From: an uncultured Thermoleophilia bacterium
GTDB lineage: Bacteria; Actinomycetota; Thermoleophilia; UBA2241
NCBI GenBank assembly: GCA_963715985.1
Contig: CAVQSP010000013.1
Coordinates: 512,001-576,000, forward strand
Length of the DNA stretch: 64,000 nucleotides
Direction of reading: 5' to 3'
The notes under the pieces were generated by a model. The model had not been told where the DNA came from, did no database searches, and saw only the letters and a program-made list of their open reading frames with translations. Below are positions 36,463 through 50,677 of this stretch, piece by piece. A program made the translations under genes and the position numbers. The stretch's first letter is position 1; each line of letters opens with the position of its first letter.

Positions 36463-38265
36463 TTGGACTTCTACAAGGGCAGAGTGCTCAGGATCGACCT
36501 GAGCGCGGGAACCTCCGCCGTGGAGCCACTCAACATGGAGTGGGCCGAGAAATACATCGGCGGCAAGGGCCTGCTTCTGCGGTACATGTGGGACGAGGTC
36601 CCCGCCAAGGTCGATCCGTGGGCGCCCGAGAACCCCGTCATCCTCATGACCGGGCCATTCGCCGGCACCAGCGTGAGCACGGCGTCGCGTCTGGTGGTGG
36701 GCTGCAAGAGCCCACAGACCGGGATCCTCAACGACAGCTACGTGGGCGGCTCGTTTGCCCCCGAGATGAAGTTCGCCGGCTACGACGCCATCATCATCCA
36801 GGGCGAGTCGCCCGAGCCGGTCGTCATCGCCATCAAGGACGACGTCGTGGAGTTCATCCCGGCCAAGCCCAAGTACTGGGGCCTCAAGACCTCTGAGATC
36901 GAAGAGGCGATGCGCCGGGACGTCGACCCCGACGCCAAGACCCTCTCCATCGGCCCGGCCGGCGAGAACGAGGTCCTCTGGGCCTGCCTCTCCACCGACC
37001 AGTACCACAAAGCCGGGAGGGGCGGTCACGGCGCCCTCTGGGGCCACAAGAAGCTCAAGGCCATCGCCATCCGCGGCACCGGGTCCGTGGAGGTCGGCGA
37101 CGCCAAGGCGTTCCTCGCCGACCTCTACCGCATCCACACCGACTACGTGCTCACCGAGGACAACCTGTGGGCCAACGAAGAGGGCACGCCGGTCCTGGGC
37201 CAGATCATGAGCGACGCGGGCGTCATCCCCACGCGCAACTGGTCCTCGGGCACGTTCGACCTGATGGAGAACATCAACTCGGACGCGTTCATCAAGATCC
37301 GCACCAAGAACCGCGCCTGCTACCAGTGCGCCATCGGCTGCCGGCAGTTCCACGAGGTGGACGGCATCGTCGGCGAGGGGCCGGAGTACGAGACCATCGC
37401 CCTGTGCGGCGCCAACTGCGGCATCGGTGACATCGCCGCCCTGTCCCGGTTCAACCACCTCTGCGACGAGCTGGGTCTGGACACCATCTCCAGCGGCAGC
37501 GTCGTCGGCCTGGCCATGGACCTCACCGAGAAGGGCATCAAGGACTTCGGCCTGCACTTCGGCGAGGCAGAGGGCTACCTGGCGGCGCCGGCGCTCATCG
37601 CCGCCAAGGAGGGCCTGGGCGCTGAGCTGGCACTCGGTTCGCGCGCCTTGGCCGCCAGGTACGGCCACCCCGAGATGGCGATGGAGGTCAAGAACATGGA
37701 GCTGCCGGGCTACGACCCGCGCGGCTCCTTCGGCATGAGCCTCGGCTACGCCACCTCGGACCGCGGCGGCTGCCACATGCGCACGTATCCCATCGCCGAC
37801 GAGATCGTCGGCGGCACCCTGCCGCCGGACTCGCTCGAGGGCAAGGCGATGAAGGTCGTCTGGGGCAACCCCGCCGAGGGCATGATCGGCGAGAACTTCA
37901 GCGCCGTGAAGTTCTGCGGCATCTGGTGCGACTTCTGGGCCGTGACGCCCGAGCAGATCGGGCAGATCTTCAAGCACGCCTGGAAGCGCGAGTTCAGCGA
38001 TGCAGAGGTGTTCCAGATCGGCGAGCGCGTGTGGAACCTCGGGCGGCTGTTCAACCTGCGCGAGGGCGTGGAGCCGGACACCATCCCGCACAAGCTCTAC
38101 GCGGAAGAGCACGCCCACACGGAGGGCGCCTCGGCCGGCCGGTCCATCGGCACCGAGACGTTCAAACAGGCGCTGCAGGACTTCTACCAGATCCGCGGGT
38201 GGGACGAGAGCGGCGTGCCAAGCGAAGCCAAGCTCGCTGAGCTCGGCGTCGACGTGCGACTCTGA
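36463..38265 (+). CDS. Tungsten aldehyde:ferredoxin oxidoreductase family protein (AOR/WOR)
   Basis: LRIDLS, KSPQTG, IGPAGEN, AGRGG, KKLKAI, CYQCAIGC, GPEYET, LGLDTIS, YDPRG, RGGCH, RGWDESGVP. Confidence 0.93.
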   Translation: MDFYKGRVLRIDLSAGTSAVEPLNMEWAEKYIGGKGLLLRYMWDEVPAKVDPWAPENPVILMTGPFAGTSVSTASRLVVGCKSPQTGILNDSYVGGSFAPEMKFAGYDAIIIQGESPEPVVIAIKDDVVEFIPAKPKYWGLKTSEIEEAMRRDVDPDAKTLSIGPAGENEVLWACLSTDQYHKAGRGGHGALWGHKKLKAIAIRGTGSVEVGDAKAFLADLYRIHTDYVLTEDNLWANEEGTPVLGQIMSDAGVIPTRNWSSGTFDLMENINSDAFIKIRTKNRACYQCAIGCRQFHEVDGIVGEGPEYETIALCGANCGIGDIAALSRFNHLCDELGLDTISSGSVVGLAMDLTEKGIKDFGLHFGEAEGYLAAPALIAAKEGLGAELALGSRALAARYGHPEMAMEVKNMELPGYDPRGSFGMSLGYATSDRGGCHMRTYPIADEIVGGTLPPDSLEGKAMKVVWGNPAEGMIGENFSAVKFCGIWCDFWAVTPEQIGQIFKHAWKREFSDAEVFQIGERVWNLGRLFNLREGVEPDTIPHKLYAEEHAHTEGASAGRSIGTETFKQALQDFYQIRGWDESGVPSEAKLAELGVDVRL

Positions 38266-38294
38266 CGGCTGACGCCGGACGAAGGGAGTGACAC

Positions 38295-38795
38295 ATGCCT
38301 CACGTGATGATCTCGAGCAAGAAGTGCACCGGCTGCCACATGTGCGAGCTGGCCTGCTCCGCCTACCATGAGGGCGCCTACCGGCCGTCCGTGGCCCGCC
38401 TGTTCTCGGAGGTCAATCCGACCACCGGCGCCATCAAGGGCCACACCTGTCTGCAGACGGGGTGCTCCAAGTGCCAGAAGGCCTGCCCCAACGACGCCAT
38501 CGTGACCAAAGAGATCACGATGGCCGTCACGGGGGAGTTCGCCGCCAAAGCGAAGGTCGGCGAGAGCGTCAAGGGCTATGTGCTCGTCGTCGTCGACGAG
38601 CTCTGCACCAACTGCGGCGAGTGCTACGACGTCTGCCCCACCGGCGTCATCCACGAGCATCCCGACAAGGAGGTCGCGTACAAGTGCGACCTCTGCGACG
38701 GCTCTCCGCAGTGCATCGCCTTCTGCCAGAACCCGCACGTGCTCGCCGTGGACCTCAAGGTCGACCGGCAGGACAAGGAACTGGCGGCGGTCTGA
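38295..38795 (+). CDS. Multi-[4Fe-4S] small subunit
   Basis: CTGCHMCELAC, CLQTGCSKCQKACP, CTNCGECYDVCP, KCDLCDGSPQCIAFC. Confidence 0.9.
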   Translation: MPHVMISSKKCTGCHMCELACSAYHEGAYRPSVARLFSEVNPTTGAIKGHTCLQTGCSKCQKACPNDAIVTKEITMAVTGEFAAKAKVGESVKGYVLVVVDELCTNCGECYDVCPTGVIHEHPDKEVAYKCDLCDGSPQCIAFCQNPHVLAVDLKVDRQDKELAAV

Positions 38796-38799
38796 CGCC

Positions 38800-39069
38800 G
38801 TGGCCACCGCGTTCGTCAAACTGCCCGTGGGCATGACCACCACCGGCGGGCGCCGCGAAGTGGAGTGCGACGGCGCCACCGTGCGAGAGGTCATCGAGCA
38901 GGCCATCGCGGCCGAGCCGCGCATGCGCGCGCGCATCTTCCGCGAGGACGGGCGCATGTACGCCGGCGTGTTCATCAACGGGCGCAACATCAACGCCCTT
39001 GAGGGCATGGACACGCCCATCGCCGACGGCGACAAGCTCAGCGTGCTGCCCCCGCTCTCAGGCGGCTGA
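38800..39069 (+). CDS. MoaD/ThiS ubiquitin-like sulfur carrier
   Basis: VFINGRNI, DGDKLSVLPPLSGG C-terminal diglycine. Confidence 0.88.
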   Translation: MATAFVKLPVGMTTTGGRREVECDGATVREVIEQAIAAEPRMRARIFREDGRMYAGVFINGRNINALEGMDTPIADGDKLSVLPPLSGG

Positions 39070-39091
39070 CGCCGCGGACGCGGTGAAGGGG

Positions 39092-39132
39092 GGCGGGGCC
39101 GGCGCTCGAAGGAGCACCGGCCCCGCTTTCGT
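39092..39132 (+). terminator. Intrinsic terminator after the AOR operon
   Basis: gcggggccggcgctc-gaag-gagcaccggccccgc followed by tttcgtt. Confidence 0.55.
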
Positions 39133-39147
39133 TGGTAGACTGTCCGC

Positions 39148-39810
39148 ATGGATGCAGCGGACACACGACGCCGCCTCGAGACTGCGGGCCTCGTCGAGGC
39201 GGTGGAGGGCCGGGCGAGCGTGCGCAAGTACCTGCCCGACCCCGTACCGCGCGATGACGTCACGGCGATGGTGGCCTTGGCGACCCGCGCCGCCAACGCC
39301 GGCAACGCGCAGATGTGGCGGTTCATCGCCGTGGACGACGCCGTCACGCAGATCGCCATGCGCCAGGCCGTGGACGAGGCCATCGACGAGATGGCGGCGT
39401 GGCCCGAGCTGGCCGGCAAGGCGAAGGAGATCAAGGCGCTGCGCGTGTACTCCACGTTCTTCGTCGACGCGCCGCTGGTGGTCGCCGTGTTCGGCTACCC
39501 GTATCTCGCGCGTGCCGACGAGATGCTGGACGCGCGCGGCGTGGGCGTGGAGGAGCGCGACAGGCTGCGCGCCCGGCCCGACCTGCAGAGCATCGGGGCG
39601 GCCGTCCAGCTCTTCTGCACGGCTGCCCACGCCCTCGGCTACGGCGCCTGCTGGATGACGGCGCCGGTGCTGGGTGCCCTCGCCATCGAGGAGCTCCTCG
39701 GGGTGGAGCCGCCGGCCAAGCTCGTGGCCGTCGTGCCCGTGGGCAGGCCGGCAGGCGCCGTGCGGCCGACGTCCAGGCGCCCTGTGGAGGACGTGCTCGA
39801 GTTCCGCTGA
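39148..39810 (+). CDS. Nitroreductase family flavoprotein
   Basis: RASVRKY..DPVP, ANAGNAQMWRF, AAHALGYGACW; TAGACT lies 6 nt before the ATG. Confidence 0.85.
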   Translation: MDAADTRRRLETAGLVEAVEGRASVRKYLPDPVPRDDVTAMVALATRAANAGNAQMWRFIAVDDAVTQIAMRQAVDEAIDEMAAWPELAGKAKEIKALRVYSTFFVDAPLVVAVFGYPYLARADEMLDARGVGVEERDRLRARPDLQSIGAAVQLFCTAAHALGYGACWMTAPVLGALAIEELLGVEPPAKLVAVVPVGRPAGAVRPTSRRPVEDVLEFR

Positions 39811-39927
39811 ACCGGGGTGCGGCAGTCCGGCTTGCCACCTCTGCCCGTGCGTAGGTACACTCGCCTGCGCGGCGACTGTGGCCGTTTCGCAGTCTCCCGG
39901 TCCACCTCTCGAAGGGGGGAACCTCCA

Positions 39928-41008
39928 GTGGCTCAGCCGACGCTCCTCATCGACGACCTCTGCGACAGGGCGCTGTCCGGAGAGAAGCTGGGGGTGCGCG
40001 AGCTGGAGGCGCTGCTCGCGGCCGACGAAGCCGGAGCGGAGACTGTCTTCGCGGCGGCGCGCGACGCCCGGCGCCGCGTCTTCGGGAGCACCGTGTTCCT
40101 CTATGGGTTCGTCTACTTCTCCACCTACTGCCGCAACGAGTGCGCGTTCTGCTTCTACCGCGCCGACAACACGGAGAGTCCGCGGTACCGCAAGACCCTG
40201 GACGAGGTCGTGGCCATCTGCCACGACCTGGCCGGGTCCGGTGTCGTGCTCCTTGACCTCACGATGGGAGAGGACCCCGTCATCCACGACGACCCGGGCT
40301 TTCGCGGGCTGCTGGAACTCGTGTCCTCCGTCCTGGAGGGCAGCGGCCTGCCCGTGATGGTGTCGCCGGGCGTGGTGCCGGGCCCCGTGCTCGCCGACCT
40401 CGCGGCGTGCGGGGCCGACTGGTACGCCCTGTATCAGGAGACCCACACTGCGGAGCTGTACGGGCGCCTGCGCGTCGGACAGCCGTACGCGGCGCGCGCC
40501 GAGGCGCGCAGCGCGGCCCGGCGCGCCGGCCTGCTCGTGGAGGACGGCCTGCTCACCGGCATCGGCGACACGGCCGCAGACCGCGCCCATTCGGTGGCCG
40601 TGATGCGCGAGGCCGCGTGGGAGCAGGTGCGCGTCATGACCTTCGTGCCCCAGGCGGGCACCCCGCTTGCAAGACACCACGCCGGCCGGCGACAACGCCG
40701 AGCTGCTCACGATCGCGGCCATGCGCCTGGCCATGCCGGAGGCGCTCATCCCCGCCTCGCTTGACGTGGACGGCATCGCCGGTCTGGAGCGCCGTCTGAA
40801 CGCCGGTGCCAATGTGGTGACGTCCATCGTCCCGCCCACCGTGGGCCTGGCCGGGGTGTCGCAGAGCGAACTGGACATCGAGGAGGGCCACCGTACCGTC
40901 GAGGGCGTGTTGCCCCACCTCGAGCGGCTCGGGATGCGCGCCGGCTCGGTGGACGAGTACCGCGCCTGGCTGACGGAGGCTCACACCCGCGCTCTGGGGC
41001 ACGCGTGA
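39928..41008 (+). CDS. pylB: 3-methylornithine synthase PylB (radical SAM), frameshifted near 40667
   Basis: YGFVYFSTYCRNECAFCFYR, LDLTMGEDP, WYALYQETH, QVRVMTFVPQAGTP; then IPASLDVDG...RLNAGANVVTSIVPP in the 40667 frame. Confidence 0.92.
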
Positions 41009-42252
41009 GGCTCCTCGTCGTCGGCGGCAAGCTGCAGGGTACGGAGGCCGCCTATCTGGGCGCCAAAGCGGGCTGGGAGGTCGTCCTCGTGGACCGCCGC
41101 GAGGCTCCCCCTGCGGCCGGCCTCGCCGCCCGTCACATCGTCGCGGACATCACCGCCGACGAGGACCGTGCACGCACGCTGGTGGCCTCCTGCGACGCGG
41201 TGCTGCCCGCCTGCGAGGATCTGGCCACGCTGGAGTGGCTGGCGGCCCGCGTGGAGGGCTGGGGCGTGCCGCTGCTGTTCGACCTCGCGGCCTACCGCGT
41301 CACGCAGTCAAAGGCGGCCTCGAGGGACCTTTTCGAGAGGCTCGGCGTGCCACGCCCCGCGTCGTGGCCGCACTGCGGATTCCCCGCCGTCGTCAAACCG
41401 GACGTGGCCAGCGGCAGCGATGGCGTCGCCGTGGTCGGCGATGAGGTGGAGCTCGAACAGGCCACGGCGGCGCTGCGCGCGGCCGGGCACGAGCCTCTGG
41501 TAGAGGAGTACGTCGCCGGGCCGTCTCTCTGGTACGAGGTCCTCGCCGCCGGCGGACGCTCAAGGGCGCTCCAGGTCACAGGCCTCGAGTTCGACGCCGT
41601 CTACGACTGTAAGCGCGTCGTGGCGCCGGTGGGCGAGGTGGGCGTCGGCGAAGAGCCGGCGCCGGTGGGCGCCGACGGCGGCACGGACTGGGAGCGCAGC
41701 GTGCCCGCCGGCACGCTGGCGGCGTTCGCCGGCGTCTCCGCCCGTCTCGCCGAGGGACTCGGCCTGTGCGGCCTCATGGACGTGGAGGTCATGGTGCGCG
41801 CCGGCGGGCCGCTCGTGCTCGAGATCGACGCCCGGCTGCCCAGCCAGACGCCTACCGCGGTGTACTGGTCCAGCGGTGTCAACATCCTGGAACTGCTGCA
41901 CGAGACGGTCGTGGCCGGCGCGCCCCCGGCGGTCGAGCCGGCCCCGCGCTACGCCTGCGTCTACCAGCACGTGAACGTGCGCGGGGGTTTGGCCGAGGTC
42001 GTGGGCGAGCATGTGATGGGAAGCGCGGCGCCGTTGCGCCTCGTGGAAGGGCTCTTCGGCGCGCACGAGGTGCTCACAGACTACCGCCCGGGCGCGGCCG
42101 AGTGGTGTGCGACGCTCATCACTACGGCGGACACCGCCTCCGGCGCCCGGGAGGCGGCCGACCAGGCGGTCCGGGACCTCGTCTCGCACGAGGGCCTTGA
42201 GCTCGTCCCGGAGAACGGCGCCGGGCGTGTCGACGAAGAGGTGTACAAGTGA
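41005..42252 (+). CDS. pylC: 3-methylornithine--L-lysine ligase PylC (ATP-grasp)
   Basis: VVGGKLQGTEAAYL, KPDVASGSDGV, YDCKRV, MDVEVM, LEIDARLPSQTPTAVYWSSG; GTGA overlap with pylB. Confidence 0.93.
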   Translation: MRLLVVGGKLQGTEAAYLGAKAGWEVVLVDRREAPPAAGLAARHIVADITADEDRARTLVASCDAVLPACEDLATLEWLAARVEGWGVPLLFDLAAYRVTQSKAASRDLFERLGVPRPASWPHCGFPAVVKPDVASGSDGVAVVGDEVELEQATAALRAAGHEPLVEEYVAGPSLWYEVLAAGGRSRALQVTGLEFDAVYDCKRVVAPVGEVGVGEEPAPVGADGGTDWERSVPAGTLAAFAGVSARLAEGLGLCGLMDVEVMVRAGGPLVLEIDARLPSQTPTAVYWSSGVNILELLHETVVAGAPPAVEPAPRYACVYQHVNVRGGLAEVVGEHVMGSAAPLRLVEGLFGAHEVLTDYRPGAAEWCATLITTADTASGAREAADQAVRDLVSHEGLELVPENGAGRVDEEVYK

Positions 42253-43055
42253 CGAGACTCACCGAACAGGACGTGCGCTCACTCACCGAGCGGCTCGCCG
42301 CCTTCGAGGACGGGCTGCGCGAAGTCGCGGGCATCGGCTTGCGCGAGCTCGCCATGGCCACGGTCGCGGACCCCCCGGTGTGCGTACCCCTCCACGGCAC
42401 GCGGATCGCGGCGGTGCCCATCACCTCGGGCCAGGGAGTGATCTCCGGGTTCACGGATTGCGTGGCCACGATACTGCGCCACATCGACTGTGACGCCTGG
42501 GTCACACAGCAGCCGGACGTGCGTGGCATCCAGGAGGCCATGACCAGCCGCGCCGAGGTCATCTTCCTCGCCGACGACTATCGCTTCGTGGCGCTCGACG
42601 TGCGCAAAGGCCGCTGCATCGACGACGATCCCGCTACGGCCGACGGCTACGTGACGGCGCTCGAGGCTGCGGCCGGCGGCTTGTTCGGCCGCAGGGTGCT
42701 GCTCCTCGGCCTGGGGCCTGTGGGCAGGGCCGCTGCGCGCCGCCTGGTGCGGTGCGGGGCGAAGGTCGAGGTCGTGGAGCCCGACGAGGCGCGATTGCAG
42801 GCCGCGCTGGACATCGGGCTCCGCATCAGGCCGGTCACGCTCGAGGAAGGCCTCTCCCGCTGCGACCTGATCTTCGATGCCACGCCGGCGCCGGACTTCA
42901 TCGACGCCGGCGACATCTCGGAGGCCACCATCGCCGCAGTGCCGGGCATCCCCTCGGCGTTCACACCCGCGGCGCAGGCGGCCCTCGGCGTGCGCCACAT
43001 CCACGAGCCGCTTGCCGTGGGCGTGGCCGTGATGGCCGCTCGCGCGCTCGTCTAG
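42249..43055 (+). CDS. pylD: Pyrrolysine synthase / dehydrogenase PylD
   Basis: MTRLT, VPITSGQGVISGF, FLADDYRF, GLGPVG, IHEPLAVGVAVM; ends in TAG. Confidence 0.92.
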   Translation: MTRLTEQDVRSLTERLAAFEDGLREVAGIGLRELAMATVADPPVCVPLHGTRIAAVPITSGQGVISGFTDCVATILRHIDCDAWVTQQPDVRGIQEAMTSRAEVIFLADDYRFVALDVRKGRCIDDDPATADGYVTALEAAAGGLFGRRVLLLGLGPVGRAAARRLVRCGAKVEVVEPDEARLQAALDIGLRIRPVTLEEGLSRCDLIFDATPAPDFIDAGDISEATIAAVPGIPSAFTPAAQAALGVRHIHEPLAVGVAVMAARALV

Positions 43056-43106
43056 GCGCGCCGGCGGCGAGACCGTCCTGCGCTCGCCGGACGCTTCGGC
43101 GACTCG

Positions 43107-43115
43107 TAGTACAAT
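43107..43115 (+). promoter_or_regulatory. Putative -10 box for pylT
   Basis: TACAAT at 43110-43115, 10 nt before the tRNA 5' end. Confidence 0.5.
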
Positions 43116-43125
43116 GGTCGCGCGC

Positions 43126-43198
43126 GGGGGGTCGATCGTAAGGATCAGCGCGGACTCTAAATCCACGTAGGCGGGTGTGACTCCCGCACTCCCCGCCA
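43126..43198 (+). tRNA. pylT: tRNA-Pyl (anticodon CUA)
   Basis: GGGGGGT/ACTCCCC acceptor stem, discriminator G and encoded CCA; GATC-GTAAG-GATC short D arm; long anticodon stem with CT-CTA-AA loop (CTA at 43157-43159); short variable loop; GCGGG-TGTGACT-CCCGC T arm lacking TTC. Closely resembles Desulfitobacterium tRNA-Pyl. Confidence 0.95.
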
Positions 43199-43245
43199 CT
43201 CTCTCTTCTTCCCGGCCCAGCCTGACGGCACCGGCGTGCCGCGTC

Positions 43246-44175
43246 TCAGGGCACGAACGTGACCGGGATGCGCACCTCGTCCTGGCGCGAGCCGTCCTCC
43301 ATCGACTGGTCGTAGACGATGAGGGTACCCGCCCCCGCGGACGTGCTGAAGGGGATCACCTTGCGGAAGTCGCCGCGCTCCGGGCCGCCGGCCGAGGCCT
43401 GCACCGGGACGTTGACGATGCGGCGGCCGCTGTCGTCGATGAGGCGAGTCATGAAGGCGCCCTCGAACACCAGGGCCGTCCCCGAGAGGACGAACGGGTT
43501 CGTGAGGACGGCGCCGACGCCGGGGCGCTCGACGAAGATGGCCGGCTCGAAGTCCGACCACTCGGCGCGCGTCTGCCCCGGATCGACGAGGAGGCCCTCG
43601 CCGCCGAGCGAGGCCAGCGGCTCGCCGTCCATGCGCAGGTCCACGGACTTCACCGAGTCGAACTGGGTGACCGTGTAGACGACCTGCGCCACGCGCGCCT
43701 GCATGGAGAGCGAACCGCCGCCCGAGGCGAACTCCCCCGACAGGTCCACGGTGGCGACGCCGTCCTTGACGGACACGCCGAGCAATCGCGTGCCGGGCGG
43801 GACGGCGCTGGAGAGGCCGGCGGCCTGCTCCGAGGTCGCCGGCCCGTCGCACAGCGCCGTCAGTGCAGCGGCGGCCACGGCTTGGGTGCGTGGCACCTGC
43901 CGCTCGGCCACGCCGAGCTTCTCGCCACGCAGGAAGTACGGACGAACGGTGGTCGTCGCGGCGGCGGGCGACGACGACGGCGCCTCCGACTCCTGTGGCG
44001 AGGCCGGCGTCGTGGTCCCGCTCGCGGCGCCGGTCGGAGTGGCGCCGCCCGTCGCGCCGCCGGCTGTGCCGCCGCAGGCGGCCGCCCCGGCGGCGCCGGC
44101 CAGTGCGAGGATGAGCGCGAGTGCGAGGAGTGTGGGCCGCAGGCGCGCAGTGCGCGGGCGCGGGATGTGGATCAT
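43246..44175 (-). CDS. Lipoprotein with GerMN and Gmad2 Ig-like domains
   Basis: Signal peptide with AAAC lipobox, T/S/P-rich linker, VDLSGEF..GGGS...AQVVYTVTQF, SGTALVFEG. Confidence 0.8.
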   Translation of the reverse strand: MIHIPRPRTARLRPTLLALALILALAGAAGAAACGGTAGGATGGATPTGAASGTTTPASPQESEAPSSSPAAATTTVRPYFLRGEKLGVAERQVPRTQAVAAAALTALCDGPATSEQAAGLSSAVPPGTRLLGVSVKDGVATVDLSGEFASGGGSLSMQARVAQVVYTVTQFDSVKSVDLRMDGEPLASLGGEGLLVDPGQTRAEWSDFEPAIFVERPGVGAVLTNPFVLSGTALVFEGAFMTRLIDDSGRRIVNVPVQASAGGPERGDFRKVIPFSTSAGAGTLIVYDQSMEDGSRQDEVRIPVTFVP

Positions 44176-44261
44176 GGGCGGCCTCGTCTCGGCGATCGCA
44201 GGGGATTCACTTTCGCCGCCACGGGGGCCGCCTCCTGCCGGGGGTGGTAGACTGCAGCCCC

Positions 44262-44588
44262 ATGCCGACCGACCCCAACAAGGCGCGGTACTACCGCAAG
44301 CAGATCCCGCTCTTCCGGCTGCTGGAGAAGATCAAGCTGTGGCCCTCGCGCCGCGGCATCCTGCACGGCATCCGCGAGTTCGAGCCACGCGGCTCCTACG
44401 CCATCGTCGTCACGCACTGCGGCAAGCAGATGGTGGTGCACGACTCCAAGACCAGCCGCGCCGCCCGCTGGCTGCGCAACAAGTGGTACGCGGAGGCCTG
44501 CCCGAAGTGCCGCATCCCCGAGTGGAAGCTCCAGAAGTACGCCTCGACGCACTTCAATCGCGGGTACGGCTCTCACCTGCACGAATGA
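44262..44588 (+). CDS. pylSn: Pyrrolysyl-tRNA synthetase N-terminal subunit PylSn
   Basis: LLEKIKLWPSRRGILHGIR, THCG, SKTSRAARWLRNKW, CPKCRIPEWKL. Confidence 0.93.
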   Translation: MPTDPNKARYYRKQIPLFRLLEKIKLWPSRRGILHGIREFEPRGSYAIVVTHCGKQMVVHDSKTSRAARWLRNKWYAEACPKCRIPEWKLQKYASTHFNRGYGSHLHE

Positions 44589-44600
44589 CCCGGCCGTGCG

Positions 44601-45239
44601 TCAGGGCGTCACGCCCTCGGCTGCGGGCGGGTCGTAGCTGATGCGCCCGCTGGCGAGGTCCAGGAACCGCCAGCCGCGGATCCCTGAGACCTTCCAGGCG
44701 CCATCCACCGGTGCCAGCGTGTACTCCATGATCACCGCCGTCGGTGAGGCCCTCGTGTGCATGTCCTCCGGCCCGCGCCGGGCGCTCCACCGGCACGAGG
44801 TGATGAAGTGCTCCACCGCGGCGCGCAGCACCACACGCCCGTCGGGGAAGCGGCCCAGGAAGTCGTAGTACACCACGCGTCCCCGGGCCGAGATGGGGAT
44901 CCGTCCGCCGGCCGTGCGCCGGCTGTCCAGCAAGCCTTGCGGCCGGTCTGTTTCCAGCCAGCGCTCCAGCACCCCGCCGGTCGCGTACCTTGCCATCTGG
45001 GCGTCCGCCATCGCCTGGAGCGCGTCCCTCTCCGCCGCCGAGAACGTGCTCAGGCCGCGGTACGCCACCGGCCACAGCGGGACCGGCGCGAGTTCGTAGC
45101 CGACGACGGTCGCCGTCATGGCCACCCTGTTGTGGCCCGAGGGGGGCGCGAGCGTCCACGCCTCGAGTGCCCAGAGGCCTGCGGCGGCGACGATGAGGAC
45201 GGTGAGGACGAGGCGCGCGTGCGGGAGCCTGCCGCGCAC
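44601..45239 (-). CDS. Hypothetical protein with N-terminal membrane anchor
   Basis: LVLTVLIVAAAGLW anchor and a C-terminal YTLAPVDGAWKV (NTF2/Tim44-like ending); starts just after the radical SAM stop. Confidence 0.5.
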   Translation of the reverse strand: MRGRLPHARLVLTVLIVAAAGLWALEAWTLAPPSGHNRVAMTATVVGYELAPVPLWPVAYRGLSTFSAAERDALQAMADAQMARYATGGVLERWLETDRPQGLLDSRRTAGGRIPISARGRVVYYDFLGRFPDGRVVLRAAVEHFITSCRWSARRGPEDMHTRASPTAVIMEYTLAPVDGAWKVSGIRGWRFLDLASGRISYDPPAAEGVTP

Positions 45240-45241
45240 GG

Positions 45242-46120
45242 TCAGAGCAGCCGCCAGCTCTCCGGGCGCAGCCGCACAGACTCCGGTGCCAGCAGGACCT
45301 TGTCCAGGGAGGCGAGTATGGCGGCCTTGTCCCGCGGCAGGCGGCCGCCCACGGGCAGGTAGTTGGAGGCGTGGTTGCTGCGGAAGAGGCAGTCCGACAC
45401 GTCGAGGTCGGCGACGATCTCGCGCAGCTCGCGCAGCATCCCCAGGGAGTCGGGGAGCACGAGCTCTCCGCTCGCGACCCTCCGCTCCATGGCGGTGCCG
45501 GGCGTGAGCATGAGCGTGAGCACGCCGATGTACTGGGGGTCGATGGCGGACAGAGCCCGGCCCGTGGCTGCGCCGTGTTCCAGCGACCGCTCCGCCCCGG
45601 CCAGCCCGAGGATGGCGGTCACCGAAAGGGCGATGCCGGCCTCCGTGGCGCGCCGGCAGCCGTCGATCTGCTCCGCCACCGTCATGCCCTTGTGGACGTC
45701 GGCCAGGGTCTGGTCGTCGCCGGACTCCAGGCCCAGGTAGAGAAGCGCCAGGCCGTGTTCGCGGAGCGACGCCAGATCCTCCACGCTCTTGGCCAGCAGG
45801 TTGCGCGCGTTGGCGTAGCTGCTCACGCGCTCCAGATTGGGGAGCGCACGGTGGAGCAGTTGGAGGATGTCGTGGAGCTTGCGCGGACTCAGGGCGAGCG
45901 CGTCGCCGTCCGCCAGAAAGACGCGGTCCACGCGGGTGCGCACGGTGGACGGCAGGTTGAGGACGTCGTCCACCACCTCGTCGAAGGGCCGCACCGCGAA
46001 CGGCTTGTCGAGGTAAGTGCCGCAGAAGTCGCAGGTGTTGTTGGAGCACCCGTACGTCACCTGGACGATCAGGCTGGAGGCTTCGCTCGGGGGGCGGATG
46101 ACGGCACCGTGGTATCTCAC
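45242..46120 (-). CDS. Radical SAM protein of unknown function
   Basis: IRPPSEASS..QVTYGCSNNTCDFC (CxxxCxxC), FLADGDAL, YLGLESG, FRSNHASNY. Confidence 0.88.
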   Translation of the reverse strand: MRYHGAVIRPPSEASSLIVQVTYGCSNNTCDFCGTYLDKPFAVRPFDEVVDDVLNLPSTVRTRVDRVFLADGDALALSPRKLHDILQLLHRALPNLERVSSYANARNLLAKSVEDLASLREHGLALLYLGLESGDDQTLADVHKGMTVAEQIDGCRRATEAGIALSVTAILGLAGAERSLEHGAATGRALSAIDPQYIGVLTLMLTPGTAMERRVASGELVLPDSLGMLRELREIVADLDVSDCLFRSNHASNYLPVGGRLPRDKAAILASLDKVLLAPESVRLRPESWRLL

Positions 46121-46312
46121 GCCCCTGATGCTAGCACGGGTGCCCGTGGTCGCGCGGCCTTGTGCGCCGGGACACATGGTGGGCTCCGAGCGCGGCTGAT
46201 ATACTCCGGCGGTCGCAGGAAGGGGGAGCGACACGCCGTCTCCAGCCTTCCTCGAACCGCCACACCTCGCAGTGCGGTGTAGCCGTTGGAGACATTGGGA
46301 GGAGCCCCACGC

Positions 46313-46946
46313 ATGGCCACCATCTACGAAGAAGCAGCCCAGACCATCATCGACGCCGACCGCGCCGGGGCCGAAGCGGTCGCAGCTCGCGCCCTCGCCG
46401 AGGGCATCAGCCCCGCCGACATCATGCAGAACGGCTTCGTCATGGGCATCCAGGAGGTCGGCGAGCTCTTCGAGAGCGGCGAGGTCTTCCTCCCCGAGCT
46501 GATGATGAGCGCCGACGCCATGGCCGGCGCCACCGAGGTCACCAACGCCGCCCTCGAGGGCGAGGCCGCCGAGGCCAAGGGCGTGATCGTCATCGGCACC
46601 GTGCAGGGCGACGTGCACGACATCGGCAAGGCGATCGTGATCGCCTACCTGAAGGCCAACGGCTACGAGGTCCACGACCTCGGGCGCGACGTGCCCGCCG
46701 AGGCCTTCCTCACCCGTGCCGCCGAGACCGGCGCCGACGTGATCGGCATGAGCGCCCTGCTCACGACGACGATGGAGGAGCAGAAGAAGGTCATCAAGCG
46801 CGTGCAGCGAGGAGGGCCTGCCCTACAAGTGCGTCGTCGGCGGCGCCCCCGCCACGCAGCGCTGGGCCGACCAGATCGGCGCCGACGCCTACGCCGAGGA
46901 CGCCAACGACGGGGTCAAGAAGATCAACGAGCTGCTGGGGAAGTAA
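46313..46946 (+). CDS. Methyltransferase cognate corrinoid protein (MttC/MtbC/MtmC-like), frameshifted near 46805
   Basis: GELFESGEVFLPELM cap domain, GTVQGDVHDIGK (DxHxxG), DLGRDVP, SALLTTTM; then VGGAPATQRWADQIGADAYAED in another frame, TAA at 46946. Confidence 0.9.
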
Positions 46947-46971
46947 GAGCCCGGACAGCTGAGTGCGCCGT

Positions 46972-47003
46972 CGAGGGGGCGGGCCGTGAGGCCCGCCCCC
47001 TCG
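46972..47003 (+). terminator. Hairpin after the corrinoid gene
   Basis: cgagggggcgggcc-gtga-ggcccgccccctcg. Confidence 0.6.
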
Positions 47004-47160
47004 CGCGTACGCCACTCGTGCGCTGCACCCTCGGCGTCTGAACGAGTGGGCCGACCGGTCCGACTGCTACCGCGACAGCCCGACGCATGCGCGGGGCGCC
47101 GACCTCGACCAGGTCGTGGCCTGGTGCGAGCCCGGACCCGGTGTGGCGGCGCTGGACTGC

Positions 47161-47340
47161 GTCAGATGCTGAGCGGCGCCCCTGCGGCGCAGCGCTCGAC
47201 ATCCCCGCTTGCGCCGTGCGACCGGCCCATGGGGCCGGCCTCATTGCGCTGCGTCAGATGAAGAGCGGTGACCCTGCGGCGCACCGCTCGACATCTCCCC
47301 TCGCCGCGGCTTCGCTGCGGCTCGTCAGATGTTGAGCCGC
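47161..47340. repeat. REP-like palindromic repeats downstream of pylSc
   Basis: gtcagatg..gagcgg...cctgcggcgca.cgctcgacatc at 47161 and 47253; a third gtcagatg..gagc at 47324 is the pylSc stop region. Confidence 0.75.
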
Positions 47341-48155
47341 ACGCCGTTCACGTACGTGAGGCTGCGGCCGGCGCGCTCGATGTTGGGGTAGCCCTCGCGC
47401 ACCATGATCAGCCGTTCGAGGCCGAACCCGAGGCCCACCCACGGCTCCATGATGCCCCAGTTGCCGTCCAGCGGGTGAGGGCCCATCCCGGCCGAGCACA
47501 CCTCCGTGCCGCCGACCTCGACATCCACCATCTGGCCGTACACCTCGGACTCGGTGCGCACGAGCTCGTACTCGCTCACCCCGGCGGCCTGCATCACCAG
47601 CGCCGCGAGCTCGTTCATGCGCTCGCGGCAGGTGCCTGCCGGCGTGCCGAGCTCTACGAGGTTGAGCATCGTGAACTCGTTGAGGTGGCTGGCGCCCTTG
47701 CTGTCGCGGCGGAAGCAGGTGCCGATCTCGAAGATGCCGAAGGGGCGGCCCCACATGCGGCCCAGACGGCGCATCACGGTGTACAGGTTGGGTGCCAGCA
47801 TGGGCCGCAGGCAGCGCCCGTCCTCGAGCCAGAACACCTGCTCGCGCAGCGGGTGCCCGTGCTCGATACCCATCTTGACGAGCGAGTCGGCGGCGATGAT
47901 GAGCGGCGTCACCACGGGGACGAACCCGGCCCCGCAGAGGGCGGTGCGCAGCGCCGTCTCAAGCTCGATCAGCTCCGGCGCCCGGCCGCCGTCGCGAAGC
48001 TCCTGCAGGCGTCGCCGGCCGTCGCGGACCAGTTCGTCCTCGGCGGCGCGAAACGCGGCGTCGCGCGCCGCCGCGTCGGCGAAGGTCGCCGCGGTCAGCC
48101 CGGCGCCCCCGCCGAGCTCGCGCAGGCGCTGCAGTTGCGTGGCGGTGAGGTTCAC
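47325..48155 (-). CDS. pylSc: Pyrrolysyl-tRNA synthetase catalytic subunit PylSc
   Basis: CLRPMLAPNLY, FEIGTCFRRDSKGASHLNEFTMLNLVE, GLGFGLERL, GRSLTYVNG; AAAGGAGA RBS before GTG 48155. Confidence 0.95.
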   Translation of the reverse strand: MNLTATQLQRLRELGGGAGLTAATFADAAARDAAFRAAEDELVRDGRRRLQELRDGGRAPELIELETALRTALCGAGFVPVVTPLIIAADSLVKMGIEHGHPLREQVFWLEDGRCLRPMLAPNLYTVMRRLGRMWGRPFGIFEIGTCFRRDSKGASHLNEFTMLNLVELGTPAGTCRERMNELAALVMQAAGVSEYELVRTESEVYGQMVDVEVGGTEVCSAGMGPHPLDGNWGIMEPWVGLGFGLERLIMVREGYPNIERAGRSLTYVNGVRLNI

Positions 48156-48181
48156 GCTGTCTCCTTTGTCCGGCGCCGGCG

Positions 48182-49267
48182 TCACGTCCCCGCCCCGGGG
48201 AGCCGAACGCGGGCCAGGTAGTCCGTGAGGCCGCCCACGAGGGCTCGGGCCACCGCCTCGATGTGGGATGGGCGTCGCGCCAGGCGCTCCTCGTCGGGGT
48301 TGCTCAGGAAGAGCGGCTCGACAAGAACGGCGATGGCGCGCGTCTCGCGCAGCACGCCGTAGTTGCGCCCGAACTCGCCCAGGCTGCAGCCGCCCGTGGC
48401 CTCGAGCCGGGCGGCCAGATGCCCGGCCAGCAGGCGCCCGTGCTCGGAGAAGTAGTGGCCGCGCTGGAAGTAGTAGCAGGCGGCGCCACGAGCGGCCGTG
48501 GAGCGGTCCTGGTTGCCGTGCAGCGAGATGAAGCAGTCGGCGCCCGCCGCACCGGCGGCCTCGGCGCGTGCGTACAGCGGCAGCGTGTCGTCACGCTCGC
48601 GTGTGAGCCGCACGCGACAGCCCTCGGCGCGGAGCAGCTCGGCGAAGCGCAGCCCGAGCGCCAGCGAGAAGTCCTTCTCCGCGAGGCCTGACGGCGAGAC
48701 GTACCCGGTGTCGGTGCCGCCGTGCCCGGGGTCGATCACCACCACCTGCCCGGTGAGGCTGCGCGCCGGCACGTAGCCGCCGTCACGTTCGGGGATCTTC
48801 TTGCCCTCGCGCCCCGACTCCGCCTTGCGCAGCGCCTCGAGCTTGCGGATCGTGCTCTCGCCGACGATGCCGTCGGGGATGAGCCCGGCGTTGCGCTGGA
48901 AGTCGAGCACGCCGCGCTCCACGTGGTCGTCGTGCACGCCGCGTTCGGCGCCGGCGTTGAAGCCCAGCAGGTTGAGCTTGACCTGCAGGGTGAGCACGTC
49001 GTCGCCGCGAAACGGCGGCTCCTTGAGGTAGAGCAGCCGGTCGCCGAGCGCGTAGCCCGCCTCCACGAGCTCCCGCCACGTGTTGGCGCCCACCACCCCG
49101 TCGGCCAGCATGTCGCGCTCCTGCTGGAAGGTGCGAACAGCCGCCTCGGTGCTGGGTCCGAAGAACCCGTCCGCGCCCTCGCGGCCGGGCTCGTGTCCCT
49201 GCCCGCGCAGGCGGGTCTGTACGTCGAGGACTTCTTTGCCGCGGTCGCCGCGGGAGAGGTTACGCAC
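48182..49267 (-). CDS. N-acetylmuramoyl-L-alanine amidase with two peptidoglycan-binding domains (CwlM-like)
   Basis: DGFFGPSTEAAVRTFQ, DGIVG, VVIDPGHGG, ISLHGN, VLVEPLFLSN. Confidence 0.88.
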   Translation of the reverse strand: MRNLSRGDRGKEVLDVQTRLRGQGHEPGREGADGFFGPSTEAAVRTFQQERDMLADGVVGANTWRELVEAGYALGDRLLYLKEPPFRGDDVLTLQVKLNLLGFNAGAERGVHDDHVERGVLDFQRNAGLIPDGIVGESTIRKLEALRKAESGREGKKIPERDGGYVPARSLTGQVVVIDPGHGGTDTGYVSPSGLAEKDFSLALGLRFAELLRAEGCRVRLTRERDDTLPLYARAEAAGAAGADCFISLHGNQDRSTAARGAACYYFQRGHYFSEHGRLLAGHLAARLEATGGCSLGEFGRNYGVLRETRAIAVLVEPLFLSNPDEERLARRPSHIEAVARALVGGLTDYLARVRLPGAGT

Positions 49268-49279
49268 GCCGGATCCCCG

Positions 49280-50129
49280 TCAGATGCCCATGCCCGAGCG
49301 CACGCCGGTCACGATGAGGATGAGGATGGCGACGCCCACGACGATGCGGTAGACGACGAAGATACTGAAGGTGTGCCGCTTGAGGTAGGCGAGCGTGAAC
49401 CAGATCGCGGCGAACCCGCTCACGGCCGCCGAGAGGATGCCGACCGCAAAGGGGGTGGCGGTACCGGCCGGCAGGCCGTCCTTGGCCACCTCGAGCGCCT
49501 TGTACGCGGCCGCCCCGCCGATCACGGGGATGCTCATGAGGAAGGAGTACTGCGCCGCCGACTCGCGGTCGAGGCGCATCAGGAGGCCGGTCATCATGGT
49601 GATGCCGGAGCGCGACACACCGGGGCACAGGGCGAACGCCTGGGCGATGCCGATGAGGACGGCGTCGAGCCAGCTGAGGCTCTCCAGGTCGCGGTCCAGC
49701 CTGGCGATGTGGTCGATGAGGTACATGACGCCGGCGAACACGATCATCATGACGGCGATGATCCAGGGTCTTGCCGAGGCGGTCCTCGATGAAGCTCTCC
49801 AGAGCGACTCCGATGATCGCCGCGGGGATGGTGCTGACGATCAGCAGCCAGGCGAGCTTGGCCTCGGGGTCGGCGAGACTCCGCCTGGACATGCTGCGGG
49901 CCCACGCCGCAAGCAGGCGCCCGATCTCGCGCCAGAAGTACACCACCACGGCCACGAACGTGCCCAGGTGCAGGGCCACGTCGAACGTCTTGTTGAGGCC
50001 GGGGTTCTCGAGGAGGAAGTGCCAGTTGAAGAGCCACGGGACGATGATCAGGTGACCGGAGCTGGAGATGGGCAGGAACTCGGTCAGACCCTGGACGATG
50101 CCGAGGATGAGGGCCTGCAGGATGGTCAC
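49280..50129 (-). CDS. uppP: Undecaprenyl-diphosphate phosphatase, frameshifted near 49770
   Basis: GIVQGLTEFLPISSSGHL, FDVALHLGT; then AQAFALCPGVSRSG, YSFLMSIP. Confidence 0.9.
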
Positions 50130-50260
50130 GGATGATCCTCGCTTTGGTGGGCGGTGACGGGCGGGCGCGCGCCGCCCCCCGAGCCTGAGTTTAGCCCACG
50201 GTATACCTGTGGAGGCATCGGCGTCGACCGCGGGCGCGCCCGCGAAGGGAGAGAAGGGAA

Positions 50261-50677
50261 ATGGCGGCAAGCGACCCGGTCGTGGTGAGCTGGAAGCAGA
50301 AAGGCCTGCTGTTCGGGGGGGTCACCTCGCACGGGCGTGTCGACCTGGCTTCGTCCCTCGACGGGCCCGGGCAAGGAGCCACCCCGATGGAGTTGCTCGC
50401 GGTCTCCCTGGCCGGCTGCACCGCGATGGACGTGGTCTCGATCCTGCAGAAGATGAGGCAACCGCTGGAGGAGATCCGCGTCGAGGTGCGTGGCGAGATG
50501 GCTGAGGAGCACCCCAGGCGCTTCATCTCGCTGGAGGTCGTGTACTACCTCAAGGGCGCCCTCGACGAACGCAAGGTCCGGCGCGCCGTCGAGCTCTCGG
50601 AGACGCGCTACTGCTCGGTGGAGGCCACACTGCTGCCGACGGTCGCCATCACGTCGCGCGTCGTCATCGAGAGCTGA
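50261..50677 (+). CDS. OsmC/YhfA family protein
   Basis: TPMELLAVSLAGCTAMDV, LSETRYCSV. Confidence 0.88.
   Translation: MAASDPVVVSWKQKGLLFGGVTSHGRVDLASSLDGPGQGATPMELLAVSLAGCTAMDVVSILQKMRQPLEEIRVEVRGEMAEEHPRRFISLEVVYYLKGALDERKVRRAVELSETRYCSVEATLLPTVAITSRVVIES

Follow-up and report, generated by a model that had tools for sequence, protein, structure and literature searches.

The mRNAs that carry pyrrolysine (Pyl) codons in an uncultured Thermoleophilia bacterium and its relatives share a conserved cis-element, composed of a rare UUR leucine codon immediately 5' of the UAG and a hairpin within the coding sequence capped by a four-base A-G-R-N (AGRN) loop. The pyl genes of this organism lie in a 64,000-nucleotide stretch of its genome, hereafter the window (positions 512,001 to 576,000 of contig CAVQSP010000013.1, GenBank assembly GCA_963715985.1), in which an earlier annotation made from the sequence alone, the original prediction, had described a Pyl system. 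The cluster is genuine and belongs to a known system, although it has received little description so far; the new part is the mRNA element, a variant of the pyrrolysine insertion sequence (PYLIS) idea, which the original prediction missed and which is more interesting than the cluster itself. In the mechanism we propose, Pyl codons would be marked in cis by a U-rich codon just 5' of the UAG (UUR when it encodes leucine) together with the AGRN-capped hairpin, and a putative protein would bind the loop and tip the competition between Pyl-tRNA and release factor 1 (RF1) toward read-through, as a bacterial PYLIS loosely similar to the selenocysteine insertion sequence (SECIS). UAG remains a common stop, and the Pyl system would be used selectively. 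We assign a probability of roughly 0.65 to a loop-binding factor that favours Pyl-tRNA over RF1.

Because the third codon positions of this genome are nearly all G or C, rare codons stand out: TTG accounts for 2.5% of leucine codons, GGA for 4.4% of glycine codons and GCA for 3.5% of alanine codons. Where a leucine immediately precedes Pyl, it is encoded by UUR in 144 of 150 mtbB, 9 of 9 mttB and 16 of 16 mtmB genes, when the usage of each gene predicts 23.4, 0.6 and 1.9, respectively. The next highest leucine site in mtbB reaches a UUR frequency of 0.31, and leucines preceding ordinary TAG stops are mostly CTC or CTG.

Further downstream, one third base is forced to A in each family, giving GCA at codon +24 in mttB, GGA at codon +26 in mtbB and NTA at codon +38 in mtmB. 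In the folded mRNA, this A is the first base of a four-base AGRN loop capping a hairpin in all three Pyl families, approximately 60-140 nt 3' of the UAG (+62..+84 in mttB, +62..+97 in mtbB and +94..+139 in mtmB, with the loop at +72, +78 and +114 nt). In rows cleared of exact duplicates only, the A-G-R of the loop is kept in 151/152 MtbB, 81/84 MttB and 15/16 MtmB sequences, compared with 3/68 Pyl-less MttB; the third-position rate of each gene predicts 15.3, 5.6 and 0.8 loop A's, respectively. After removal of sequences more than 85% alike, all 91 remaining mtbB sequences (91/91) have GGA at codon +26, for a median of 0.50 and a next best value of 0.68 among 66 comparable invariant four-fold sites. 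With the same filter, the mttB loop is kept in 47/50 sequences, and the three most constrained of 69 sites all fall in the hairpin.

The stem of the mtbB hairpin is paired in 88.5% of cells and shows 102 two-sided changes, compared to 36.3 in shuffled alignments (0/500 reached the observed value), with slid controls far lower. At +72:+87 all six pair types are represented; among 7826 column pairs, this one takes first place in excess pairing as well as in corrected mutual information, and +69:+90 comes second in excess pairing. The mtbB window of the hairpin is 3.5 kcal more stable than under synonymous resampling, and its flanks are less stable. These results show selection at the RNA level, on sequence and on structure, tied to Pyl codons.

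The same data bear on the possibility that no functional element exists and that the pattern reflects heritage from an AT-rich donor, a codon or restriction-site bias, or a pause of Shine-Dalgarno (SD) type. It is true that Pyl genes are slightly richer in rare codons overall (0.08-0.10 vs 0.06), that avoidance of CTAG could account for a G before any TAG, and that GGAG and AGG resemble SD sequences. However, such biases would have to fix one site in 91 of 91 sequences while 65 comparable sites vary, and to produce compensatory pairs; the CTC and CTG codons before ordinary TAG stops speak against them as well, and an SD sequence is not expected in the 4-nt loop of a covarying stem. We consider the absence of a functional element improbable in general, and for mtbB it is already largely refuted.

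The hairpin also distinguishes Pyl codons from stops. A rule requiring an AGRN loop on a 5-bp stem at +60..+125 is satisfied by 213/252 Pyl sites, 0/75 Pyl-less paralog sites, 8/478 other TAGs (some of these eight being duplicate Pyl genes) and 27/1970 TGAs. It detects 17 of the 20 distinct Pyl sites of this genome, and at the sites missed the AG is retained in a loop that is somewhat larger or has a shorter stem. In five close paralogs in which Leu or Val replaces Pyl, the TTG is found in 0/5 and the GCA in 1/5, and the adjoining Pyl copies keep both.

A second explanation accepts the hairpin as real and places its action beside or after decoding: it could protect the mRNA, pause RNA polymerase, block Rho, or serve as the target of a regulator or a nuclease when translation stalls or ends at the UAG, while decoding itself would be a plain competition between tRNA and RF1 tuned by the supply of Pyl. 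The loop, 72-114 nt away from the UAG, is outside the ribosome footprint, and no signal of a stable structure was found directly behind the UAG, where the first 60-90 nt are no stabler than in Pyl-less paralogs. A dedicated elongation factor is also lacking, since a single SelB scores above its cut-off and no second one was detected in this genome, which is 89% complete; and archaeal work, according to the available parts of PMC12626013 and PMC13663744, favours control by supply and demand. On the other hand, the element decays where Pyl has been replaced and is present in three unrelated enzyme families, and the separate constraint on UUR points at decoding, because this codon occupies the P site while the UAG is read. 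We find an action beside decoding doubtful on balance, but the most credible of the alternatives.

For the proposed decoding role, the invariant first base of the loop and its freely changing stem suggest recognition by a protein. AGNN loops are read in this manner by yeast Rnt1p. A first candidate for the binder would be free PylSn, because it binds RNA, is always a separate protein in bacteria and has no clear role according to a review. That UUR-UAG plus a distant AGRN hairpin bound by a trans factor, perhaps PylSn, constitutes a true Pyl insertion signal in bacteria is a proposal that we put forward tentatively. If it were true, binding by PylSn would explain the split synthetases of bacteria and the survival of hundreds of UAG stops. 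Addition of the hairpin could render amber suppression site-selective in engineered cells, as a possible part for genetic code expansion, and the element yields single-base, synonymous, testable predictions in addition to a rule that separates Pyl codons from stops in bacterial genomes.

Outside the Thermoleophilia, we considered metagenomic sequences from the Joint Genome Institute (JGI), taking the best 80 of at least 548 mtbB matches, of which 78 were used; most are unassigned to a taxon, and Thermoleophilia probably account for some of them. Of these 78 mtbB genes, whose GC content at third positions ranges from 0.34 to 0.96, 77 keep the loop, as do 20 of 23 neighbouring Pyl mttB genes. 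Two of the metagenome loci are tied to Desulfobacterales and Deltaproteobacteria. Published sets were compared by eye in the supplement of Theil Have et al. 2013 (PMC3639795), to whose available part the following counts refer. Both bacterial mtbB genes (Acetohalobium and Desulfosporosinus) have the full hairpin, while GGA occurs in 6 of the 16 archaeal genes and the pairing CUG in 1; the AAU of the mtmB stem base is found in 3/3 bacteria and 2/16 archaea. The element thus compared appears to be mainly bacterial and mostly absent in methanogens, which may explain why archaea-weighted searches missed it.

Several observations weigh against the decoding role or limit its generality. The mttB stem has more modest support, with 0/500 for paired cells, 7 two-sided changes and no pair in the top lists, and in mtmB pairing is conserved with zero two-sided changes in 7 rows. 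The A of the loop is the only base provably selected at the RNA level, because the protein sequence constrains the G and R as well. In contrast to SECIS, the loop is remote from the UAG, and its distance differs among the three families; the hairpin counts are not independent because the sequences are related. The element is not universal in bacterial Pyl genes: it is missing in 3/23 of the metagenome mttB genes, and among the published mttB genes seen in that supplement, the loop is found in 4/8 bacterial ones (neither Desulfitobacterium nor three of the Desulfosporosinus copies have it), and 2/10 archaeal ones show it with a 4-bp stem. Finally, the element is not strictly required, since E. 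coli reporters lacking it do show UAG suppression by PylRS/tRNA pairs (reviews).

The closest known elements are the PYLIS families of Rfam (RF01982 PYLIS_1 in mtmB, RF02509 PYLIS_2 in mtbB and RF02510 PYLIS_3 in mttB), whose models the genes studied here match; 13 of 14 hits reach or approach family level, and those of mtbB and mttB exceed the Rfam gathering score. PYLIS_2 already depicts a small mtbB hairpin with a 4-nt loop. PYLIS_3 does not include the mttB hairpin, PYLIS_1 ends at +97, short of the mtmB hairpin, and the seeds are mostly archaeal and family-specific. The mtbB stem predicted at +1..+39 by folding and Rfam gives no top covarying pair. Opinions in the literature differ. According to Zhang and Gladyshev 2007 (PMC1976440), bacteria with Pyl should require a signal in cis, given that UAG serves them as a stop, but their search yielded no common structure. 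The available text of Theil Have et al. 2013 reports no common structure in mttB. PYLIS is described as poorly conserved and unnecessary in PMC9499178, and, in the accessible parts of two papers from 2025-2026, the element as not required (PMC13663744) and the mechanism of targeted insertion as not known (PMC12626013); one review takes PYLIS as given, without detail. The portions of the PYLIS literature examined mention neither a loop common to the three families nor its near-invariance among bacteria, nor the UUR codon. No shared bacterial element or tetraloop was described in the literature searched, which leaves out subscription papers and bioRxiv supplements, so an earlier mention is possible.

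As in bacterial SECIS, read by SelB, a hairpin within the coding region lies 3' of the recoded stop and has a conserved loop at its apex. SECIS differs in standing directly behind the UGA, in its consensus and in having a known dedicated factor, while the Pyl loop is 72-114 nt away. The SECIS in fdhA of this same genome is of the usual type, starting approximately 12 nt after the UGA with the loop GGUCU.

UAG is still an ordinary stop in this organism. TAG ends 572 of the 3025 genes called by the codon model (18.9%, Pyl codons included), 32-43% of genes in samples of 200 kb from three further Pyl-positive genomes, and 26% in a Pyl-less one. Back-up stops after TAG show no excess. The stops of pylSc, pylD and pylSn interchange among TAG, TGA and TAA in relatives; that of pylSc is TAG in 19 loci, TGA in 12 and TAA in 5, and that of pylD is TGA in 12 relatives and TAG in 4. 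No AGRN hairpin follows the terminal TAG of pylD, which we read as a true stop. Conserved Pyl codons were found just in methylamine methyltransferases.

A genome-wide reassignment of TAG to Pyl, as in the archaeal "code 34" (Kivenson et al., bioRxiv 10.1101/2024.09.30.615893), would share with this system the Pyl machinery and many Pyl codons, and at least five ordinary genes of this assembly do contain an internal TAG flanked on both sides by coding sequence. From 156 listed candidates for TAG read-through, we took 7 that are not methyltransferases and compared 4 with their relatives. In all four, the internal TAG is private and relatives have sense codons, mostly Glu, and none of the seven has the hairpin; these candidates give no support to new Pyl proteins outside the methyltransferases. 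In contrast to code 34, TAG here remains a frequent stop, ending 19-43% of genes across the four Pyl-positive genomes, and conserved Pyl codons are confined to methylamine methyltransferases. The frequent TAG stops, the lack of back-up stops, the interchange of stops and the private internal TAGs indicate that UAG has two meanings, and make a general reassignment very improbable. The seven internal TAGs (C20:286148, C3:114184, C14:142429, C14:388409, C11:81094, C3:97798 and C14:730972, by contig of the assembly) may be errors or mutations tolerated through suppression.

The genes that use the Pyl codon were sought genome-wide, as the original prediction had proposed, and 23 methyltransferase genes have TAG at the Pyl site: 10 of 57 MttB, 11 of 12 MtbB rows (the twelfth being an out-of-frame fragment) and 2 of 7 MtmB. 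Some copies are near-identical and are perhaps strain duplicates. The TAG aligns with the Pyl of M. barkeri MtmB and MttB (1tv2, 7xcm). The eight full-length MtbB paralogs share just 45-69% identity with one another. Across the order, MtbB gave 618 matches in 86 genomes, fragments included (~7 per genome), and each of 150 MtbB among the matches listed contains one TAG; no MtbB was found in viral contigs. The five Pyl-less MtmB homologues have Val, Val, Met, Ile and Ala at the site (C11:185068, C11:311481, C3:48518, C14:103360 and C14:620367, respectively).

Transfer of methyl groups to a corrinoid protein is established for these methyltransferase families. Charged tRNA-Pyl would serve the approximately 23 enzymes (10 MttB, 11 MtbB, 2 MtmB), which would pass N-methyl groups to corrinoid proteins and, via methyl-tetrahydrofolate, into the carbon monoxide dehydrogenase/acetyl-CoA synthase (CODH/ACS) module of the Wood-Ljungdahl pathway, to acetyl-CoA or CO2. 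A cluster of CODH, ACS, corrinoid iron-sulfur protein, activator and methyltransferase genes is present on contig C11, and ACS was found in 60 of the 89 genomes of the order but not in the other 29; the methyl sink therefore varies within the order, which counts against this reading. This order of wetland and soil Thermoleophilia appears to be centred on methylamine demethylation and could rival methylotrophic methanogens. Paralogs of Pyl MttB and MtbB (C3:44000-64000, C10:1-20000, C13:300000-320000) have genes for a decarboxylase, class III aminotransferase, aldehyde dehydrogenase, deiminase and ABC proteins as neighbours, a hint that their substrates may extend past mono-, di- and trimethylamine to methylated polyamines or amino acids.

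Within the window, NCBIfam and ARAGORN bear out the complete set proposed by the original prediction: pylB, pylC, pylD, a CUA tRNA, pylSn and pylSc. It is established for such proteins that PylB, PylC and PylD build Pyl from two lysines and that PylSc, with PylSn, charges tRNA-Pyl(CUA). The gene pylB (3-methylornithine synthase, a radical SAM protein with CxxxCxxC; 39928..41008, + strand) matches TIGR03910 in two pieces of 303.9 bits (model 5-248) and 126.4 bits (model 247-347), for a whole-model cut-off of 348.2, because of a one-base frameshift near 40670. It is followed on the + strand by pylC (methylornithine-lysine ligase; 41005..42252; TIGR03909, 317.9 bits, cut-off 248.3), the dehydrogenase gene pylD (42249..43055; TIGR03911, 199.5 bits, cut-off 150.05), pylT for tRNA-Pyl (43126-43198) and pylSn (44262..44588; TIGR03912, 124.9 bits, cut-off 51.15), which encodes the free-standing tRNA-binding subunit. 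The catalytic subunit of pyrrolysyl-tRNA synthetase is encoded on the - strand by pylSc (47325..48185; TIGR02367, 316.2 bits, cut-off 178.15). The split, bacterial type of synthetase had been correctly recognised, since both subunits are separate and above their family cut-offs. The best solved relative of PylSc is the D. hafniense-type 3dsq (E 7e-93). Its pocket, read by eye, carries Gly where M. mazei has V401, as do two published actinobacterial entries discussed below, and Met in place of L309; these residues may allow a wider substrate range.

The pyl genes do not form one operon, as pylB-C-D-T and pylSn are on the + strand, pylSc is on the - strand, and unrelated genes are interspersed. 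These are a GerMN/Gmad2 lipoprotein (43246..44175, -; PF10646, PF10648), an unrelated passenger that synteny shows to be retained in most of the order; an open reading frame of unknown function (44604-45260, -) with no Pfam or NCBIfam match and ~30% identity in just 3 of 33 related loci; and a radical SAM protein of unknown function (45242..46120, -; PF04055), probably leaderless, which is a neighbour of pyl genes throughout most of the order and also in a single genome of a second Thermoleophilia family. The corrinoid protein of the original prediction was likewise confirmed (46313..46946, +), with the motif DVHDIG and a match to TIGR02370 of 172.2 bits (cut-off 215.3), shortened by a frameshift near 46804-46806; it is of the methylamine type, similar to MtbC/MtgC. 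The start of pylSc overlaps by 4 bases (GTGA) the stop of an N-acetylmuramoyl-L-alanine amidase gene (48182..49267, -; PF01520, PF01471), which is immediately 5' of pylSc in 33/33 related loci and in the other genera sampled, and pylSc is coupled to this cell-wall gene. Rfam gave no match in the window at the gathering score.

As for promoters, a site read from the sequence as TTGCCA, 18 nt, TACACT (39832..39861, +), presumably serving pylB, has boxes that recur 5' of pylB in several relatives. A -10 box, TACAAT (43110..43115, +), located ~10 nt 5' of the tRNA in most of the genus-level relatives shown, is probably a separate promoter of pylT, and pylSn is probably leaderless, with TAGACT 8 nt 5' of its ATG in a box kept in most relatives. 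Genes for aldehyde:ferredoxin oxidoreductase, ferredoxin, a MoaD-like protein and nitroreductase (36463-39810, +) are found 5' of pylB in most relatives, in some of which the nitroreductase gene runs directly into pylB without a promoter gap. An undecaprenyl-diphosphatase-like gene (by eye; 49280-50270, -) lies 5' of the amidase and is frameshifted too.

Compared to the class S PylSn+PylSc systems of D. hafniense and Acetohalobium arabaticum, this one has the same six components, a split synthetase, a G73 tRNA and a 3-nt variable loop. It differs in having no compact operon, in the amidase-coupled pylSc on the other strand, in the lack of a methyltransferase in the locus, in the apparent own promoters of pylSn and pylT, and in one extra base in the D/anticodon link of the tRNA. 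It is also held by 82 of 89 genomes of the order rather than patchily, with ~7 MtbB matches per genome.

The tRNA-Pyl found by ARAGORN is 73 nt long, with a 1-nt acceptor/D link, a 5-nt D loop, a 2-nt D/anticodon link, a 3-nt variable loop, G73 and an anticodon stem of 6 bp that includes one C.A mismatch. The length and the 2-nt link are common to 11/11 aligned tRNA-Pyl of the family; folding of the tRNA alone gives a z of -0.98. The C at 43151, which creates the mismatch, is unique to this copy and is either a variant or an error. In the second Thermoleophilia family, the rare discriminator U73 is present in 5/5 tRNA-Pyl (loci L119:10950-11021, L120:11177-11248, L122:8706-8777, L123:10821-10892 and L124:1915-1986); according to the available part of Guo et al. 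2022 (PMC9630628), three bacterial U73 tRNA-Pyl were known and were proposed as a path to orthogonal pairs.

The genome comprises 4.35 Mb in 22 contigs and is 88.8% complete and 7.3% contaminated. This contamination and the frameshifts in pylB and the corrinoid gene could suggest a mis-binned or decaying piece, that is, a foreign contig or a real pylB frameshift, two possibilities that the original prediction had itself raised. Nevertheless, the gene order is common to relatives in the genus and family, and all 22 contigs have 69-71% GC, so we judge the locus not to be chimeric. The two halves of PylB share one frame in 19/19 related loci holding both. The extra base at 40670 is missing from short-read contigs in 3/4 wetland runs (the remaining run does not cover this site), and that at 46804/46806 is missing in 4/4, although these contigs come from near strains that share ~55% of words and whose identity with this strain is unproven. 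Frameshifts are common throughout this assembly. Both indels are therefore probable assembly errors, and a mis-binned or decaying cluster is hardly credible.

The placement in a Thermoleophilia-type actinomycete agrees with the 33 loci that have a close PylSc, which by title comprise 29 Thermoleophilia, 3 other Actinomycetota and 1 Deltaproteobacteria. Of the 89 genomes of the order, 82 have PylSc, covering all 11 genera, and PylB was detected in 48 of 54 genomes of the genus (E < 1e-60). The Pyl system thus sampled appears to be intact, inherited and near-universal in the order. In a sample of the class, PylSc occurs in 58/62 genomes of this family, 7/47 of the second family and 0/291 of ten other families; in a sample of the phylum, MtbB occurs in 2/401 genomes, both within these two families. 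The layout pylB-C-D-T, GerMN, pylSn, radical SAM, corrinoid and amidase-coupled pylSc is kept across the family, with some loci rearranged. In the second family, the pyl genes are arranged as a compact pylT-Sn-Sc-B-C-D operon amid methyltransferases, and no RNA-binding gene was evident in these loci by eye and BLAST (no Pfam scan was run). In the PylSc tree suggested in the original prediction, the two Thermoleophilia systems form separate supported clades (100/99 and 100/97) that are not sisters, with weak intervening branches.

The view that this lineage is not classically linked to a 22-amino-acid code was overstated. The available part of Guo et al. 2022 counts two Actinobacteria among 81 bacterial PylRS and lists "Thermoleophilia bacterium" MBE0528218.1 and "Actinobacteria bacterium ADurb.BinA094" OPZ42170.1 in its supplement, so the host is not new in print. 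By eye, both entries belong to the same clade as this PylSc. They are table rows, and extent, gene order, Pyl proteome and mRNA signals are not described in the part of that paper available. In the literature searched, no paper devoted to Pyl in Thermoleophilia was found. The genome also has a tRNA-Sec (C13:139538-139635), SelB (C13:105076) and a UGA formate dehydrogenase (fdhA on C10) with a SECIS-like hairpin; accompanying the Pyl system, they indicate that the organism probably uses all 22 amino acids.

In two small genomes of the genus (G048 and G049; 1.7 and 1.8 Mb, 98% complete), pyl genes, MtbB, Pyl-type MttB and ACS are absent together, a joint loss that speaks for the proposed reading, and they seem to represent a reduced lineage inside the genus. 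One genome (G004, 93% complete) has TAG methyltransferases and no pyl match, which is a point against strict coupling, possibly due to an assembly gap. A PylSc match with one internal TAG (G084:C9:10153-10875) is in a genome that is 51% complete and error-rich. Extra, divergent PylB copies were seen in two genomes, three in G046 (C7, C466) and two in G052 (C157, C89), and in G057 (C4:842169-848633) pylB-pylD adjoin an ACS gene, with pylC relocated beside pylT on another contig.

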